The notes beneath the pieces were generated by a model. It did not search any database and was not told where the DNA came from. It was given only the letters and a program-made list of their open reading frames with translations. 30,232 bases of DNA from Herpetosiphon sp. NSE202 (GTDB lineage: Bacteria; Chloroflexota; Chloroflexia; Chloroflexales; Herpetosiphonaceae). Location: contig NZ_JBHUPY010000007.1 of NCBI RefSeq assembly GCF_042688385.1, positions 386,110 through 416,341 of the forward strand, given 5' to 3'. Positions 459 through 25,207 of the stretch are shown here, piece by piece. Positions within the stretch are counted from its first letter, which is position 1. Each line of letters opens with the position of its first letter. Made by a program: the position numbers and the translations under genes.

Positions 459-626
459 ATGAGCGCACAATGCCCAGAATGTGAAGGAACGATCGTGTTG
501 GCGGCAGATATTTTGGATGGCGAGATTGTGCCATGCCCCGATTGTGGCGCAGAACTCGAAGTCGTCAGCCTGAACCCAGTTGTTTTGGAATTAGCACCCG
601 AAGTCGAAGAAGACTGGGGCGAGTAA
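459..626 (+). CDS. lysW: Amino-group carrier protein LysW (55 aa). It is missing from the ORF track because it is under 60 aa.
   Basis: ATG at 459 translates to [55 protein letters not shown]. It has an N-terminal CxxC...CxxC zinc ribbon and an acidic C-terminal tail ending EDWGE, the hallmark of LysW/ArgW. It lies 7 nt upstream of lysX. Confidence 0.85.
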
Positions 627-2568: not shown

Positions 2569-2862
2569 GAACATAGAACATAGAGCATAGAACATAGGGG
2601 TCGGGGGTCAGGGGCTGGGGATCGGTGGTCGGGGATCAGGGTTTCGAGGATACTAAGCTGGATTTTAACGCAGCGGCGCAGAGAGGGAGAATAATTATGA
2701 AGGATGAGAGATGAAGGGTGAAGGGATATGCTCTCCACATTGAGCTTGACGTGCTTCGTGCCCTTCGCGTGCTTCGTGGTTTCATTCTTGGGAATCTTTG
2801 CGTCCTTCGCGGTTCCTAGCCTTAGCGTGCTTCGTGCTCTTTGTGGATCAAAAAGGAACAAC
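2569..2862. repeat. Composite repeat insertion between lysY and lysZ. AACATAG x4 heptamers, then G-rich heptamers (GGGGTCGGGGGTCAGGGGCTGGGGATCGG...), then reverse-orientation CTTCGTG nonamer-type repeats.
   Basis: Direct reading. The same modules occur at 100-458, 12428-12781 and 29880-30232. The track lysZ ORF (2728..) has a spurious 45-aa N-terminal extension that translates these repeats. Confidence 0.8.
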
Positions 2863-3666
2863 ATGTTTGTGATAAAAATTGGCGGCGCGGCGGGCATTGA
2901 TTATAGCAATCTTTGCGCTGATATTGCCCAGCTTGCCGCCCAAGGCCAACCGATTGTGCTGTTTCATGGTGGTTCGGATGGAGCCAACACACTTGGCGAG
3001 CAACTTGGCCATCCGCCGCGCTTCATCACCTCGCCGTCGGGCCATACCAGCCGCCAAACTGATCGGCGCACGCTCGAAATTTTCATGATGGCGACAGCCT
3101 TGCTCAATCGCCAGCTGGTTGAGCACTTGCGGGGCTTGGGAGTCAACGCTTTCGGTTTATCGGGCCTCGATGGAGGCTTGCTGCAAGGCACCCGCAAAAC
3201 CAATGTTCGGGCGGTCGAAAACGGACGGGTGCGCGTGATTCGCGACGATTGGACAGGCAGCATCGACCAAGTTAATCGTGGATTATTGCAAATGTTGCTG
3301 AGCGCTGGCTATCTGCCAGTCATCGCACCATTGGCGGTCAGCGCTGCGGGCGAACCATTAAATATTGATGGAGATCGCGGCGCGGCCAGTGTGGCAGCTG
3401 CACTCGAAGCCGAAACCTTGTTGCTGCTAACCAATGTGAGTGGCTTATATCGTAATTTTCCCGACGAAAGCAGCTTAATCGCGCATTTGCCGCGCACAGA
3501 ATTAGCCCACGCCAGCGAAAAACTCGCCCAAGGCCGCATGAAGAAAAAATTGCTTGGAGCACAAACCGCGCTAGAGGCTGGCGTGCGCCGCGTGATTATC
3601 GGCGATGGCCGCAGCGAGCAACCAGTCAGCGCAGCGCTCGCAGGCAATGGAACAATCATCGAATAG
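2863..3666 (+). CDS. lysZ: [LysW]-aminoadipate kinase LysZ (ArgB-like amino-acid kinase)
   Basis: MFVIKIGGAAG... amino-acid-kinase N-terminus. SD AAAGGAA lies 6 nt upstream of ATG 2863. 267 aa. Confidence 0.8.
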   Translation: MFVIKIGGAAGIDYSNLCADIAQLAAQGQPIVLFHGGSDGANTLGEQLGHPPRFITSPSGHTSRQTDRRTLEIFMMATALLNRQLVEHLRGLGVNAFGLSGLDGGLLQGTRKTNVRAVENGRVRVIRDDWTGSIDQVNRGLLQMLLSAGYLPVIAPLAVSAAGEPLNIDGDRGAASVAAALEAETLLLLTNVSGLYRNFPDESSLIAHLPRTELAHASEKLAQGRMKKKLLGAQTALEAGVRRVIIGDGRSEQPVSAALAGNGTIIE

Positions 3667-3685
3667 GATTTGGCAGGAACAAACA

Positions 3686-4867
3686 ATGACTGAACAACAA
3701 CCTTTTGCCAGTTTGGAAGCTGCTCATAGCGCGGGCGTGTATGCCAAGCGCCCAATTACCTTGGTGCGCGGCAGCGGCGCAACCCTCTACGACGATCACG
3801 GTCTGGCCTATCTCGATTGTGGCTCAGGGATTGGGGTTGCCAACATTGGCCATTGCCATCCAACAGTGGTGCAGGCAATTGCCGAGCAAGTAGCAACCCT
3901 AACGGTTTGCCCAGAAGCCTTTCACAACGATCAACGCGCCTTGTTACAAGCCGAATTGGTGCAATTATTTCCTGCCGAATTTCAACGGGTATTTTTGTGC
4001 AATAGCGGCACCGAAGCCGTCGAAGCAGCCTTGAAATTTGCCCGCATGGCCACAGGCCGCACGGCAATCGTCGCAGCCATGCGAGGCTTTCATGGCCGTA
4101 CCTTTGGAGCCTTGAGCGCAACCTGGGAGAGCCATTATCGCGAGCCGTTTATGCCGCTCGTGCCCGATTTTAGTCATATTCCCTACAATAATATCGAGCG
4201 TTTGCAAAGCGCTATAACCGAACAAACCGCCGCCTTGATTATCGAAATTGTCCAAGGCGAAGGCGGAATTCGGCCTGCAACCGCCGAATTTTTGCAAGCA
4301 GCCCAAACAATTTGCCGCGAACGCGGAGCCTTGTTGATTCTCGATGAAGTGCAGACTGGCTTTGGCCGCACGGGGCGCATGTTTGCATTTGAACATGTTG
4401 GCTTGCAGCCTGATTTGGTCTGTTTGGCTAAGGCCTTGGGTGGCGGCATGCCAATGGGCGCGGTCGTGATCAACCAGCGAGTTGGCGAATTGGCGATTGG
4501 CACGCATGGCTCGACCTTTGGCGGCAATCCCTTGGCATGCGCGGCGGCGCGGGCTGCGCTCAGCGTGATTCGCACCGAACAATTGGTTGATCAAACTGCC
4601 GAAAAAGGTGCGTGGTTATTGGCTCAATTGCAAGCGATTCGTTCGCCCAGAATTCGCGAAGTGCGTGGCTTGGGCTTGATGATCGGCATTGAACTCAAGG
4701 AAAAAGTTGCGCCCTATCTGCAAAAATTAATGAACCAGCATCAGATTATTGCGCTGAATTCTGGCAGCAACGTGTTGCGCCTGCTCCCGCCGCTGGTCAT
4801 TTCGTGGCCAGAATTAGAACGCGTGGTGGCAACCCTGCGCAGCATGTTTGAGGAGCCAGCAGCATGA
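3686..4867 (+). CDS. lysJ: [LysW]-aminoadipate-semialdehyde/acetylornithine-type aminotransferase LysJ (class III PLP aminotransferase)
   Basis: Class-III aminotransferase motifs (GSGATLYDDHG, NSGTEAVEAALKFAR, DEVQTGFGRTG, the PLP-Lys region LAKALGGG). ATG 3686 has an AGGA SD. The track start 3605 would overlap lysZ by 60 nt. Confidence 0.8.
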   Translation: MTEQQPFASLEAAHSAGVYAKRPITLVRGSGATLYDDHGLAYLDCGSGIGVANIGHCHPTVVQAIAEQVATLTVCPEAFHNDQRALLQAELVQLFPAEFQRVFLCNSGTEAVEAALKFARMATGRTAIVAAMRGFHGRTFGALSATWESHYREPFMPLVPDFSHIPYNNIERLQSAITEQTAALIIEIVQGEGGIRPATAEFLQAAQTICRERGALLILDEVQTGFGRTGRMFAFEHVGLQPDLVCLAKALGGGMPMGAVVINQRVGELAIGTHGSTFGGNPLACAAARAALSVIRTEQLVDQTAEKGAWLLAQLQAIRSPRIREVRGLGLMIGIELKEKVAPYLQKLMNQHQIIALNSGSNVLRLLPPLVISWPELERVVATLRSMFEEPAA

Positions 4868-5919
4868 ACGATCAACAAGCTTTGCAATTAATTGAGGCCA
4901 TGGTGGCAACACCCAGCGTTTCTGGCGACGAGGCCGCGCTGGCCCAACTCTTGGTCGAGCAGATGCACCACGCTGGCTTTGATGCGCACGTTGATGCGGT
5001 TGGCAACGCAGTTGGGATGATTGGAGCTGCTGCTGAAACCGTCGTGCTGCTTGGGCATATGGATACTGTGCCAGGATATATTCCAGTTGAAGTGCGCGCT
5101 GGCGAGTTGTGGGGGCGCGGTTCAGTTGATGCCAAAGGCTCGTTAGCGACGTTTATTGCTGCTGCCGCCCGCGCTCATGCTGAGCAACGCTTGGCCTATC
5201 GGGTGATTGTGGTTGGCTGCGTCGAAGAAGAAATTGCATCATCCAGAGGTGCGCATTTTATAGCCCAAACCATGGCCGCGCCAACGTGGTGCATTGTCGG
5301 CGAGCCAAGCGGCGCAGACCGCCTAACCTTGGGCTACAAAGGCAATTTGCGGGCACAAATTCGCATCGACCAGGATGCAGCCCATTCGGCCCACGCCAGC
5401 CAGACCGCCGCCGAGCATGGCTGTGAATTGTGGAAAAGCATCGCCCAGCACGCCAATGAGTTTAACCAAGGCCGCGAGCGAGCCTTCGATCAGCTGCTAC
5501 CAAGCCTTGTGCGCATCGAATCTGGTGGCGATGGCCTGCGCGATTGGTGCGAGTTGCTGGTCAATGCCCGCTTGCCCTTGGATCTTGATCCGGCGGCCTA
5601 TACTGCGCTGCTGCAACAACTATTGCCCAATTATGCCCACTTGAACATTAGCGGCGCAACGCCTGCCTACAGTAGCGAGCGCACATCGAGCATAGCGCGG
5701 CGTTTTGGGCGAGTATTTCGCGCCAAAGGCCAGCAACCGCGCTATGTGCAAAAAACTGGCACCGCCGATATGAACGTGGTTGGGCCAGCCTGGGGTTGCC
5801 CTGTTGTTGCCTATGGCCCAGGCGATGCCGCGCTCGATCACACGCCACACGAGCGTTTGCCGTTGGCCGAGTATTTACAGGCGATTAACGTGTTGACCGC
5901 TGTCTTGAGCAACGAGTAA
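4864..5919 (+). CDS. lysK: [LysW]-lysine hydrolase LysK (ArgE/DapE-type M20 metallopeptidase)
   Basis: M20 motifs (HMDTV, GRGSVDAKG, EEE.SS.G). The start overlaps the lysJ stop in ATGA, which implies translational coupling. Confidence 0.75.
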   Translation: MNDQQALQLIEAMVATPSVSGDEAALAQLLVEQMHHAGFDAHVDAVGNAVGMIGAAAETVVLLGHMDTVPGYIPVEVRAGELWGRGSVDAKGSLATFIAAAARAHAEQRLAYRVIVVGCVEEEIASSRGAHFIAQTMAAPTWCIVGEPSGADRLTLGYKGNLRAQIRIDQDAAHSAHASQTAAEHGCELWKSIAQHANEFNQGRERAFDQLLPSLVRIESGGDGLRDWCELLVNARLPLDLDPAAYTALLQQLLPNYAHLNISGATPAYSSERTSSIARRFGRVFRAKGQQPRYVQKTGTADMNVVGPAWGCPVVAYGPGDAALDHTPHERLPLAEYLQAINVLTAVLSNE

Positions 5920-19300: not shown

Positions 19301-20323
19301 ATGAGTGTTTCGCTGGCCCAAATCTTCCTGATTTTTCTTTCGGCGCTCACCATGTCGATTGTAAGTACACCGCTGGTTCGGCGCTTGGCAATTGCCGTTG
19401 GCATTATCGACCAACCCAATGCGCGCAAAGTCCATACCAATCCAGTGCCATTGCTTGGCGGCTTGGCAATTTATGCTGGGGTTATGGTTACCCTGCTGAT
19501 TTGGGATGAACAATTTATTCTGCGCGAGTTGGCGGCCATTTTGGGCGGCGCGACGATTGTAGTTACCTGTGGCATGCTCGATGATAAATGGGGTTTATCA
19601 GCCTCATTAAAATTACTGGGCCAGATTATTGCCTGTTTTGTGCTGATCTTTGCGGGCATCCAAGTGCAATTATTCGCCTCGCCAGTGCTGAATGCCATCA
19701 TCACAATTGCCTGGGTCGCGGGTATTTCGAATGCAATTAATTTTCTCGACAATATGGATGGCTTATCGGCAGGCTTGACGGCGGTAGCATCGGCATTCTT
19801 TTTGCAACTTGCGGTCTTGAACGGCCAAGTCTTGGTGGCGGCGCTGTCGGCAGCCACGATGGGCGCGTGTATGGGCTTTTTGCGCCACAATTTCGTGCCC
19901 ACCAAAATCTTTATGGGCGACACTGGCAGCCTGTTTTTGGGCTTTATTTTGGCGGTGCTTGGCATCAAGTTGCGCTTTCCCAGCAACAGCATCATCGTCA
20001 CGTGGATGATTCCAATTGTCGTGTTGGGGGTGCCAATTTTTGATACCACGATGGTGATTGTGGCACGCTTACGGCGGCGAGTAAACCCATTCAACACGCC
20101 AGGCAAAGACCATATTTCGCATCGATTGGTGGCACTTGGTGCTTCACGCCGCGAAGCTGTGTTGATTTGCTATATGCTTGGCGTTGGCTGTGGCATTACC
20201 GCGACAATGTTGAGCAAAGCCGATGTGCAGGAAGCCTATGCCTTGGCAGGCTTGTTGATTACGATTGCATGTGTTGGGATTTGGTTTTTCGAACGCTATG
20301 CGCGCTATACGCCACCCAAATAA
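19301..20323 (+). CDS. Glycosyltransferase family 4 polyprenyl-phosphate HexNAc-1-phosphate transferase (WecA/TagO/MraY superfamily)
   Basis: N-terminus ...PLVRRLAIAVGIIDQPNARKVHTNPVPLLGGLAIYAG, then DDKWGL, NAINFLDNMDGL (the NxxNxxDGxDGL motif), and FMGDTGS. Ten or more TM segments. Confidence 0.8.
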   Translation: MSVSLAQIFLIFLSALTMSIVSTPLVRRLAIAVGIIDQPNARKVHTNPVPLLGGLAIYAGVMVTLLIWDEQFILRELAAILGGATIVVTCGMLDDKWGLSASLKLLGQIIACFVLIFAGIQVQLFASPVLNAIITIAWVAGISNAINFLDNMDGLSAGLTAVASAFFLQLAVLNGQVLVAALSAATMGACMGFLRHNFVPTKIFMGDTGSLFLGFILAVLGIKLRFPSNSIIVTWMIPIVVLGVPIFDTTMVIVARLRRRVNPFNTPGKDHISHRLVALGASRREAVLICYMLGVGCGITATMLSKADVQEAYALAGLLITIACVGIWFFERYARYTPPK

Positions 20324-20334
20324 GCGCGCACAAC

Positions 20335-20380
20335 AAAGCCCATGGTTTCTGCTCCCGCAGCCGTAACCATGGGCTTTTTG
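20335..20380. terminator. Bidirectional terminator between convergent genes
   Basis: AAAGCCCATGGTT ... AACCATGGGCTTTTTGG. 13-bp stem with A/T flanks. Confidence 0.7.
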
Positions 20381-20382
20381 GT

Positions 20383-20586
20383 TTAAGCAGCGACCTTTTG
20401 TGATTCCCAAGGTAAATCGAGTGCTAAGCGTGAGGCAGTAACCAAGGCAGGCTTGAGCAAAAGCTTGGGACCATAGGCCATCCAAACACTTTCGTCGGTA
20501 ACACAGCGATACGATCCATCATCAACGAGTTCCAATCGAGCACCGCAATCGGGGCAGCGGCGTTCTTCGAGCGAACGATTTTCCAT
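20383..20586 (-). CDS. Small zinc-ribbon protein (67 aa)
   Basis: ATG 20586 with an AAGGAGG SD. MENRSLEERRCPDCGARLELVDDGSYRCVTDES... has a CPDCG...C motif. The track ORF (to 20697) extends upstream past this start with no support. Confidence 0.5.
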   Translation of the reverse strand: MENRSLEERRCPDCGARLELVDDGSYRCVTDESVWMAYGPKLLLKPALVTASRLALDLPWESQKVAA

Positions 20587-20788
20587 GACGGGCCTCCTTG
20601 TGTGGGTGGTGTGTCCGGAGTTGGCGGAATTAAAAAATCCCACCCCCCGGATAGAGGAGTAGGCGATCATTGCCCTGTCATATGGCCACGCTGCCATGTG
20701 TTAAGCTGTAGTATACATGGATTTGGCAAATTGACAATCGGGCTAGCGCAGTAGTTCTATGGCCAGCCTAGTGATGGAGGGTTTTGTA

Positions 20789-21586
20789 ATGTATTGTCTC
20801 CAGTGTCGCCAGCGGTTGGAGCCTCGCTTGCGCGGCGGGCGTGAACGCTTGAGCTGCCCTGATTGTGGCTGGGTCTGGTTTAATAGTGCACCAGCTGGGG
20901 TTGCTGCCGTCATCCAAAACGAGTTTGGTGAGGTCTTGCTGGTGCGGCGGGCTGGCTCGTTTCGGCCTGGCTTGTGGTGTTTGCCATGTGGCTACCTTGA
21001 GCACGATGAGGAAATGCGCCAAGGCCTCGCCCGCGAAGTGCTTGAAGAAACTGGCTTGCATGCAGAAATTGGCGAAGTTATCGCTGTGCATTCGAATCTT
21101 GATCGCGAGCCGCCGTATCCGCTCGGGGTTTGGTTGCGAGCCACGGTCAGCGGGGGCAATTTGCAAGCTGGCGGCGATGCAGATTTGGCCCAATTTTTTG
21201 CCCTTGAGCAACTGCCGCCATTGGCCTTCGATCACGATGCGTTGGTCTTGGCTCAATTGCAGCAGCCAAGCGATGCCAGCATCGCAACGTTAACCACAGA
21301 GATGCATGAGTTTGTGCGTTCGAAGGGTTGGTACGAGGCGAATTCAAAACGCCCGCAAACGCCACGCAATTTGGCTATTTCGCTGACCCTCGAAGCCGCC
21401 GAAGTGCTCGAACACCTGCAATGGCGCGACGAAATTGTTGATCAGGCTGAATGGCAGGGCGAGTTAGCCGATGTCTTGCTCTATTTGCTGCAATTGGCCG
21501 ATACTACCAACGTCAATTTGGTCGAAGCAGTGCGCGCCAAATTGCGCAAAAACGCTGATCGAGTGTGGGATCAACCAGCTCAGTAA
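20789..21586 (+). CDS. Zn-ribbon + NUDIX hydrolase + MazG-like NTP pyrophosphohydrolase fusion protein
   Basis: N-terminus CLQC...CPDCG is a NudC-type zinc ribbon. The Nudix box GYLEHDEEMRQGLAREVLEETGL matches GX5EX7REVXEEXGU. The C-terminal 100 aa are MazG-like (EAAEVLEHLQW...ELADVLLYLLQLAD). GGAGGG SD upstream of ATG 20789. Confidence 0.65.
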   Translation: MYCLQCRQRLEPRLRGGRERLSCPDCGWVWFNSAPAGVAAVIQNEFGEVLLVRRAGSFRPGLWCLPCGYLEHDEEMRQGLAREVLEETGLHAEIGEVIAVHSNLDREPPYPLGVWLRATVSGGNLQAGGDADLAQFFALEQLPPLAFDHDALVLAQLQQPSDASIATLTTEMHEFVRSKGWYEANSKRPQTPRNLAISLTLEAAEVLEHLQWRDEIVDQAEWQGELADVLLYLLQLADTTNVNLVEAVRAKLRKNADRVWDQPAQ

Positions 21587-24724: not shown

Positions 24725-25207
24725 ATGGAACCAATTGTGCATGTTGTGCTAGCCTTGTTGCGGCGGGAAAATCAGGTGTTATTGGTGCGTCAACAAGGCC
24801 AAAATGGGAGTTATTGGAGCATTCCTGGTGGCAAAGTCGAGGTTGGCGAGCATTGGCTCGAAGCCTTCGCCCGCGAGGTGCGCGAAGAAACAGGCTTGGT
24901 TGCCGCACCCAGCACTTTAGCTTATATGTCGCAAGTCTATTTGGTTGGCAAAGCCCAGACTGTGGTTTTTTGCGCCTTCGAAGGCACAACCGAGGGCGAA
25001 ATCGCGATCAACGATCCCGATAACGAGATCGAAGAATGTGCATGGTTTGATTTGCACGAGATTCCGACTATGGTGCAAGCGTTGCGCTGGCCAAGCACCC
25101 GCCTGCCCTTGCTCGATTATCTGGCGGGCAACGTCGAGGCAGGTCGAGTTTGGGCTTTTCGCTCGAATGAAGACAATAGCGAACAATATTTATTGCAGGC
25201 AATTTGA
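24725..25207 (+). CDS. NUDIX hydrolase
   Basis: The Nudix box GGKVEVGEHWLEAFAREVREETGL matches GX5EX7REVXEETG. GGAGG SD. Confidence 0.8.
   Translation: MEPIVHVVLALLRRENQVLLVRQQGQNGSYWSIPGGKVEVGEHWLEAFAREVREETGLVAAPSTLAYMSQVYLVGKAQTVVFCAFEGTTEGEIAINDPDNEIEECAWFDLHEIPTMVQALRWPSTRLPLLDYLAGNVEAGRVWAFRSNEDNSEQYLLQAI

Follow-up and report, generated by a model that had tools for sequence, protein, structure and literature searches.

A rare fusion of zinc-ribbon Nudix and MazG-like domains in Herpetosiphonaceae, and the unrelated orphan gene that lies divergent from it

We analyzed a 30,232-nucleotide stretch of the genome of Herpetosiphon sp. NSE202 (contig NZ_JBHUPY010000007.1, positions 386,110 to 416,341; hereafter the window), in which a gene at 20789..21586 on the + strand encodes a protein of 265 aa (plus stop) that joins an N-terminal zinc ribbon, a Nudix domain and a C-terminal MazG-like domain in one polypeptide. 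This architecture, referred to below as the fusion, is real, conserved and rare, and unites, in a single lineage, two domain families that are each well understood. The protein is probably a stand-alone housekeeping enzyme with two independent, catalytically competent pyrophosphohydrolase modules that would sanitize or degrade nucleotides; we infer its chemistry, its oligomerization and any cooperation between its modules. An initial annotation of the window had recognized the three-part protein and had further proposed that a 67-aa protein encoded divergently from it is its functional partner. The architecture stands, and the partnership is rejected.

The open reading frame (ORF) of the fusion starts 8 nt 3′ of a GGAGG ribosome-binding site, and, independently of Pfam, PDB sequence matches back its ribbon, Nudix and MazG-like parts. 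The first ~30 residues (20789..20878, + strand) form a Cys4 zinc ribbon of the 3cng/PF14803 type, in which C3, C6, C23 and C26 are kept across an alignment of 15 fusion homologues and the CxxC...CxxC ribbon stands directly ahead of the Nudix domain. The Zn_ribbon_Nudix family PF14803 itself scores 20.3 bits on the window protein, under its gathering cut-off of 25.6, and is passed by some fusion homologues in precomputed annotation (e.g. P0006). In a PDB sequence search 3cng matches ribbon and Nudix domain together (residues 2-102, 1e-11), and an AlphaFold2 (AF2) model of the fusion places the β strands of the ribbon at residues 11-15 and 18-22. The ribbon had been described as NudC-like, a description that did not survive: PF09297 has no match, the NudC equivalog model NF001299 reaches 23 bits where its cut-off is 158, and the sequence contains no SQPWPFPxS motif. 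The NudC-like reading is thus disfavored, and with it NADH and NAD-capped RNA as substrates, the latter of which had been listed among the possible ones. The NCBIfam models for NudG, MutT, ADP-ribose pyrophosphatase and RppH also all score far under their cut-offs on the fusion.

The Nudix domain occupies ~residues 36-158 (20894..21262, + strand), with PF00293 matching residues 36-149 at 6.8e-19 and 68.6 bits against a cut-off of 21.1. As initially described, the Nudix box GX5EX7REUXEEXGU is complete (G68-L90, GYLEHDEEMRQGLAREVLEETGL), and G68, E74, R82, E83, E86, E87 and G89 are invariant in the 15 homologues. Foldseek searches with the fusion model returned many Nudix structures at E-values of 1e-8 to 1e-12, of which 3cng was the best and which also included 2yyh and NUDT18. 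An inter-domain linker follows (~residues 159-170; 21263..21298, + strand), whose length varies by indels in the homologue alignment and which is modeled at low confidence, the predicted local distance difference test score (pLDDT) falling below 50 at residues 162-166. Overall, the AF2 model (pLDDT 72) shows the ribbon strands, a Nudix α/β core and helices within residues 165-254. Purifying selection acts on both halves of the protein, the ratio of nonsynonymous to synonymous differences per site (pN/pS) being 0.09-0.16 over the gene and ~0.08-0.19 for each half separately. The closest homologues are those of H. giganteus DSM 589 (97% identity), H. geysericola (95%) and H. aurantiacus DSM 785 (92%), and homologues of 64-97% identity share the three-part architecture.

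The C-terminal domain (~residues 171-265; 21299..21583, + strand) had been called MazG-type, which holds with the refinement that it is an all-alpha nucleoside triphosphate (NTP) pyrophosphatase domain of the DCTPP1/RS21-C6 type. The MazG-like family PF12643 matches residues 197-257 marginally above its cut-off (28.7 bits against 27), and canonical MazG PF03819, at 20.7 bits, stays under its cut-off of 22. Among PDB entries the domain matches 4qgp, an archaeal pyrophosphatase, at 8e-14 and DCTPP1/RS21-C6 at 4e-6, and the fusion is also matched by phrog_3301 'pyrophosphatase' at 2e-15. Helices at residues 165-178, 192-211, 219-239 and 244-254 of the AF2 model make up a four-helix core, and the metal-ligand motifs E202-x-x-E205 and E225-x-x-D228 are invariant in the 15 homologues. 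In DCTPP1, a homotetramer whose active sites are shared between subunits and which acts on dCTP or 5-modified dCTP, the base is sandwiched by Trp47 and by Trp73 of the adjacent monomer, the pocket is lined by Tyr102, the sugar is bound by Asp98 and cytosine is selected by His38 and His51 (PMC13291643). W181, W212, Y232 and D228 of the fusion align with Trp47/Trp73, Tyr102 and Asp98 and are likewise invariant. If roles are transferred from DCTPP1 by alignment, W181, W212 and Y232 would line the base pocket, and E202, E205, E225 and D228 would be the metal ligands.

The initial remark that a fusion of two unrelated pyrophosphohydrolase folds is unusual was borne out. A word-indexed search of 5.8 billion proteins gave 14 full-length fusion clusters of 64-95% identity, the named ones all from Herpetosiphon or Herpetosiphonaceae, and ranked under them were single-domain proteins only. 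Exhaustive HMMER searching of 1.84 billion 50%-identity representatives gave one full-length cluster (P0010, 373 bits), with the next match at 163 bits. From the top 150 matches of that search, all two-stretch matches of at least 250 aa and ten other candidates were scanned with Pfam (24 proteins); no second Nudix-MazG protein was found among them, these being tandem Nudix, Nudix-GNAT, Nudix-NrtR, Nudix-VanZ or similar proteins, and Nudix-MazG fusions diverged below ~84 bits, outside the top 150, would escape this check. In GTDB, sampled at one genome per species, the full-length gene occurs in 5 of 185,579 species genomes, namely three Herpetosiphon species, a Herpetosiphonaceae metagenome-assembled genome (MAG) and a MAG labelled uncultured Chloroflexia (88% identical). 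Among identified members, the full-length architecture is confined to Herpetosiphonaceae. Public annotation already recognizes both domains, domain by domain, with homologues named 'ADP-ribose pyrophosphatase YjhB (NUDIX family)/NTP pyrophosphatase' by JGI and 'NUDIX domain-containing protein' by NCBI. Full-text literature searches on the fusion and on its domain architecture found no published description of a Nudix-MazG architecture.

Outside the fusion, the MazG-like module is found as a small stand-alone protein, and we analyzed the loci of its closest relatives (74 analyzable of 75, L014-L088). These proteins are ~100-180 aa long, mostly ~105, are 46-67% identical to the C-terminal domain of the fusion (55-67% in most cases) and belong for the most part to Anaerolineae-type Chloroflexota. 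A LOG/SLOG gene (PF03641/PF18306) lies directly downstream on the same strand in 56 of the 74 loci, at a median gap of 37 nt (for example L025, with genes at 4001-4294 and 4370-4915), and in 33 a divergent gene for a poly(A)-polymerase/CCA-type nucleotidyltransferase is found upstream. A MazG-like-LOG fusion protein (P0053) and a GNAT-MazG-like fusion (P0044) occur as well. LOG-family enzymes split nucleoside monophosphates (NMPs) into base and ribose 5-phosphate, and a LOG gene downstream would therefore place the module in a degradation route from NTP to NMP to base and ribose phosphate. If LOG chemistry holds here, this linkage offers the best clue so far that the fusion works in nucleotide sanitation or catabolism rather than in signaling. 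A literature search on the pairing of LOG/SLOG with MazG found nothing relevant, and the fusion gene itself has no LOG gene nearby. As a separate observation, GNAT domains recur near both modules, in a zinc-ribbon-Nudix-GNAT protein (P0211) and in GNAT-MazG-like proteins (P0036, P0044 and P0052), and at one fusion locus (L002) the fusion gene is preceded, 62 nt upstream, by a GNAT gene (3938-4939); this recurrence may be the coincidence of a promiscuous domain or a hint of a common pathway.

On these grounds we propose the following mechanism for the fusion as a sanitizing enzyme. Its MazG-like domain would be expected to oligomerize in the manner of a DCTPP1-type four-helix domain, because the active site of DCTPP1 is completed by a tryptophan of the neighboring subunit. 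The MazG-like core would cleave the α-β bond of a (d)NTP with Mg2+, yielding (d)NMP and pyrophosphate (PPi), and two to four zinc-ribbon Nudix domains would be brought together in the oligomer. The Nudix domains would in turn cleave a nucleoside diphosphate linked to another group, be it a (d)NDP, a (d)NTP or a dinucleoside polyphosphate (NpnN), and both modules would take the phosphorylation states of one unwanted nucleotide class down to the monophosphate. The fusion itself would have arisen once, in a Herpetosiphonaceae ancestor, from a 3cng-type zinc-ribbon Nudix protein and a MazG-like module of the kind that other Chloroflexota usually have as a separate protein of ~105 aa, co-transcribed with a LOG-family gene. 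Where the fusion occurs outside the genus Herpetosiphon its neighborhoods all differ, as expected for a self-contained housekeeping enzyme.

Several points weigh against this reading. The nearest solved Nudix relative, 3cng, is uncharacterized (PMC5389931), and the Nudix relatives 3grn and 3o8s are weakly active on dinucleoside polyphosphates, activities that were judged non-physiological (PMC5158307). At the 74 stand-alone MazG-like loci no Nudix gene lies within 4 kb; the fusion therefore echoes no conserved gene pair, and we infer the coupling of its two modules. Where DCTPP1 has His51, the fusion family has an invariant Gln190, so that dCTP-type specificity is not to be assumed; the region of DCTPP1 His38 does not align with the fusion, H173 lying one residue out of register, and the His38/His51 filter was not found. 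Lastly, the AF2 model is of moderate confidence, with pLDDT dropping to 50-75 in the MazG-like part, and as a monomer it is uninformative on domain arrangement.

A more ambitious reading, which we put forward only tentatively, combines two independent proposals. The control region between the fusion and the divergent small gene (described below) would be a new narrow-range cis-regulatory RNA, a structured 5′ leader of ~117 nt that toggles between hiding and exposing the Shine-Dalgarno (SD) sequence of the orphan gene and that might respond to a ligand, to temperature or to the product of the orphan gene itself; independently of this, the fusion would couple two enzymatic steps directed at a single specific class of non-canonical nucleotide or alarmone, as opposed to carrying two generic activities joined by chance. 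A strictly channeled pathway seems to us improbable. Here the Nudix domain would cleave a dinucleoside polyphosphate or alarmone (Ap4A to ATP and AMP, or (p)ppGpp) and the MazG-like domain would destroy the NTP-like product, the whole serving dedicated alarmone clearance. Fusions of catalytic domains often mark consecutive steps, a general Rosetta-stone argument that would extend to this case, and 3grn and 3o8s, which are weak dinucleoside polyphosphate hydrolases, are the closest Nudix relatives to have been assayed; those activities, however, are the ones judged too low to be physiological (PMC5158307), and the partner conserved at the 74 related loci is a LOG-family gene, with Nudix and MazG-like paired at none. 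It is very unlikely that the Nudix domain is instead a non-catalytic ligand sensor of the NrtR type that exerts allosteric control over the MazG-like domain. Nudix domains have been recruited as sensors, and NrtR and AraR are among the weak matches of the fusion, but in sensor Nudix domains such as that of NrtR the box has usually degenerated, whereas here it is complete, with the catalytic Glu and Arg invariant across the family.

The third rival, that the 67-aa protein is a regulator or subunit of the hydrolase and is co-regulated with it from a common control region, we regard as scarcely credible. The two genes do lie head to head with start codons 202 bp apart, and the -35-like hexamers of the two strands overlap. 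The small gene stands upstream of the fusion in the window, in H. giganteus, H. geysericola and H. aurantiacus and in one MAG. Four other Herpetosiphon-type genomes have the two genes side by side, and a fifth has them linked with another gene in between. To set against this, we compared the neighborhoods of 14 fusion loci and of 4 loci of a distant small-gene homologue. Among the Herpetosiphon-type genomes that pair the two genes the whole neighborhood is syntenic, and general synteny accounts for their adjacency within this one genus. The adjacency is also broken twice. In a metagenomic Herpetosiphon contig whose fusion is 92% identical (L089), a gene for a secreted 355-aa GDSL-like lipase/acylhydrolase (2641-3708, - strand) separates the small gene from the fusion, and the intergenic spacer therefore tolerates gene insertion. 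In a Chloroflexia MAG (L012), a repeat-rich insertion of ~375 bp (3600-3965) separates the fusion gene from the leader that precedes the small gene. This insertion contains two 103-nt direct copies and G/C-rich inverted repeats, e.g. GAGAGGGGCTGGGGGTGAGGG, and resembles tandem miniature inverted-repeat elements.

Beyond the genus the two genes part altogether. Seven fusion loci of 64-69% identity (L002, L003, L004, L013, L091, L092 and L093) have no small gene in the sequence covered, which is short on the upstream side of L004 (281 bp) and L013 (1,178 bp), and their neighbors all differ (GNAT, acyltransferase, GGDEF-EAL, glycosyltransferase, kinase and other genes). Conversely, the sole distant small-gene homologue (L005-L008, at 67% identity) has DUF2089 and SHOCT genes as neighbors, and the ~3-5 kb covered on each side contain no fusion gene. 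The initial annotation had stated that the pairing would be refuted if it were not conserved in any other genome, and in substance this is the outcome: adjacency is not kept beyond general synteny. The other two grounds on which the pair had been proposed fare no better. The CPDCG motif shared by the two proteins is a generic knuckle, present also in the LysW protein of the window, and fusion homologues mostly have CPACG in its place, or CPECG in those of the H. aurantiacus type. What had been taken for a shared 200-bp control region contains a conserved non-coding block that travels with the small gene and does not follow the fusion gene. We conclude that the small gene is an orphan that has no relation to the fusion and carries a conserved leader of its own. 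The least probable reading of all is that the fusion is an anti-phage or conflict enzyme for nucleotide depletion (degradation of dNTPs or of an NAD-derived signal), for although Nudix and MazG-like proteins occur in phage and defense contexts and the fusion has matches in PHROGs (phrog_1198, phrog_3301) and PADLOC (PDC-S07), these are generic single-domain matches, the sole PADLOC match being a generic Nudix, and its neighbors are housekeeping and envelope genes that vary by genome, with no flanking mobile or defense genes.

The leader is the most strongly conserved part of the intergenic region. Cross-species alignment delimits, at 20587..20745 (- strand), an ultraconserved block that serves the small gene as promoter and 5′ leader and in which the window differs from H. 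aurantiacus by 8 mismatches and 2 gaps in 160 nt (~95% identity); over the same Herpetosiphon comparison, the genes on either side differ at 38-56% of their synonymous sites. A promoter-like site on the minus strand, TTGTCA-16-TATACT (20737..20710), would give the small gene a 5′ untranslated region of ~117 nt. The leader contains a hairpin, P1 (ATGGC/GCCAT), a CU-rich stretch complementary to the SD sequence, a G-rich segment and an invariant UUUUUUAAU. It can also be made out upstream of the small-gene homologue of 67% identity (L005-L008), and it remains attached to the small gene where insertions part that gene from the fusion. In the 67% clade P1 shows the compensatory change GTGGC/GCCAC, from effectively two lineages, which are too few for covariation to decide. 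The minimum free energy structures of the two clades disagree, with modest z-scores of -0.3 to -2.4, and the intergenic region gave no meaningful match in Rfam. We also considered an in-frame ATG at 20697, which would extend the product to 104 aa; this coding extension is excluded because indels of 1 and 4 nt (in H. aurantiacus and the MAG) shift its frame. Between the leader and the fusion gene lies a poorly conserved spacer of 43 nt (20746..20788, + strand), the site of the insertions in L012 and L089, where a promoter scan found no convincing + strand promoter. Judged by its conservation and motifs, 20587-20745 is a candidate new cis-regulatory leader.

The orphan gene downstream of this leader (20386-20586, with the stop reaching 20383, - strand) follows the ribosome-binding site AAGGAGG. 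A ratio of nonsynonymous to synonymous substitution rates (dN/dS) of ~0.08 (0.07-0.10 at a dS of ~0.5 across Herpetosiphon species) shows that the gene is real. Its product had been described as another CPDCG zinc ribbon, a description that needs correcting: it has three Cys only, CPDC and a Cys28 with D or E at +3, in all homologues, which amounts to one CxxC knuckle and a lone Cys and not to a classical Cys4 ribbon. The tail of the protein is strongly conserved (VWMAYGPKLLLKPA...LALDLPWE). No family was found for it in Pfam, NCBIfam, PADLOC or PHROG. Its homologues form two clusters only in the word-indexed search of 5.8 billion proteins, and a JGI metagenome scan added one extra Herpetosiphon locus and one spurious knuckle match. 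The AF2 model of the small protein, at a low pLDDT of 64, shows a ribbon-like pair of β hairpins and has no fold match below E = 0.4. A LysW carrier protein was considered as its identity and rejected, with PF21344 scoring 17 bits against a cut-off of 27 and the C-terminal EDWGE missing.

Other features of the window lie outside these two genes. A genuine LysW carrier-protein gene is present at 459-626 (+ strand; PF21344 78.7 bits, C-terminal EDWGE); the second zinc knuckle of its product is CPDCG, and 9 of 11 residues (CPDCGAxLExV) are common to it and the 67-aa orphan. The 289-aa ORF that follows it (634-1503, + strand) is, as suggested by position, a candidate LysX of the aminoadipate pathway of lysine biosynthesis. 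A GC-rich hairpin at 20333..20380, with a perfect 13-bp stem (AAAGCCCATGGTT...AACCATGGGCTTTTT) and A and T runs on either side, lies between the small gene and a convergent glycosyltransferase-4 gene (19301-20323); it registers as a terminator-like stem on both strands and probably acts as a bidirectional intrinsic terminator. A second, stand-alone Nudix hydrolase of 160 aa (24725-25207, + strand; PF00293 3e-23) is encoded ~3 kb downstream of the fusion, flanked by an ABC-2 membrane gene and an SDR gene and found in the same place in H. geysericola.

Finding a Nudix domain and an all-alpha MazG-like domain in one polypeptide is of interest in that Rosetta-stone fusions can reveal activities that cooperate in sanitation of the nucleotide pool. 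Together with the MazG-like-LOG linkage, the fusion offers a testable handle on a widespread, uncharacterized bacterial clade of the DCTPP1 type, and it could help to assign a function to the orphan 3cng-type zinc-ribbon Nudix family, whose structure has been solved. Its significance is bounded by the facts that the domains are well known, that the fusion occurs in one bacterial family and that annotation recognizes both halves. Two by-products deserve a mention in their own right, namely the MazG-like-LOG operon and the ultraconserved leader that precedes the orphan gene.

Each part of the fusion can be set beside known systems. Its N-terminal 160 residues match the layout of the 3cng-type zinc-ribbon Nudix proteins (PF14803 + PF00293; Nitrosomonas europaea; COG1051 'YjhB-like'), whose stand-alone relatives are 40-52% identical to it and among which 3cng is the best structural match; those proteins are stand-alone and ~170 aa long, whereas the fusion adds a second catalytic domain. 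E. coli NudC, the NADH and NAD-cap pyrophosphatase, also carries a zinc-binding element ahead of its Nudix domain, but the Foldseek matches of the fusion to NudC are limited to the Nudix part (template modeling score ~0.4), and the fusion lacks the N-terminal domain of NudC as well as its PF09297 and SQPWPFPxS signatures. The C-terminus aligns with DCTPP1 and 4qgp across PRNL, E-x-x-E-x-x-E-x-x-QW and EL-x-DVL-x-YL, and keeps counterparts of the four metal ligands, the Trp-Trp sandwich, Tyr102 and Asp98 of DCTPP1. It differs from DCTPP1 in sitting behind a Nudix domain and in a 5-residue insertion (EANSK) ahead of PRNL; identity between the two is low (E ~4e-6), and base specificity may differ.

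As a design, the fusion recalls mycobacterial MutT1, in which a Nudix domain and a histidine phosphatase domain achieve successive dephosphorylation of a damaged nucleotide by one protein. In both, a Nudix domain is fused to an unrelated phosphohydrolase domain, by analogy and not by homology; the second domain is a histidine phosphatase in MutT1 and all-alpha MazG-like in the fusion, and MutT1-related matches consist of a weak hit to NCBIfam NF052459 and of 5gg5 and 9cxx in Foldseek. The MazG-like-LOG operons, finally, use a module 55-67% identical to the C-terminus of the fusion and likewise join it to a second nucleotide-processing module, the partner being a downstream LOG/SLOG gene in the operons and an upstream Nudix domain in the fusion.

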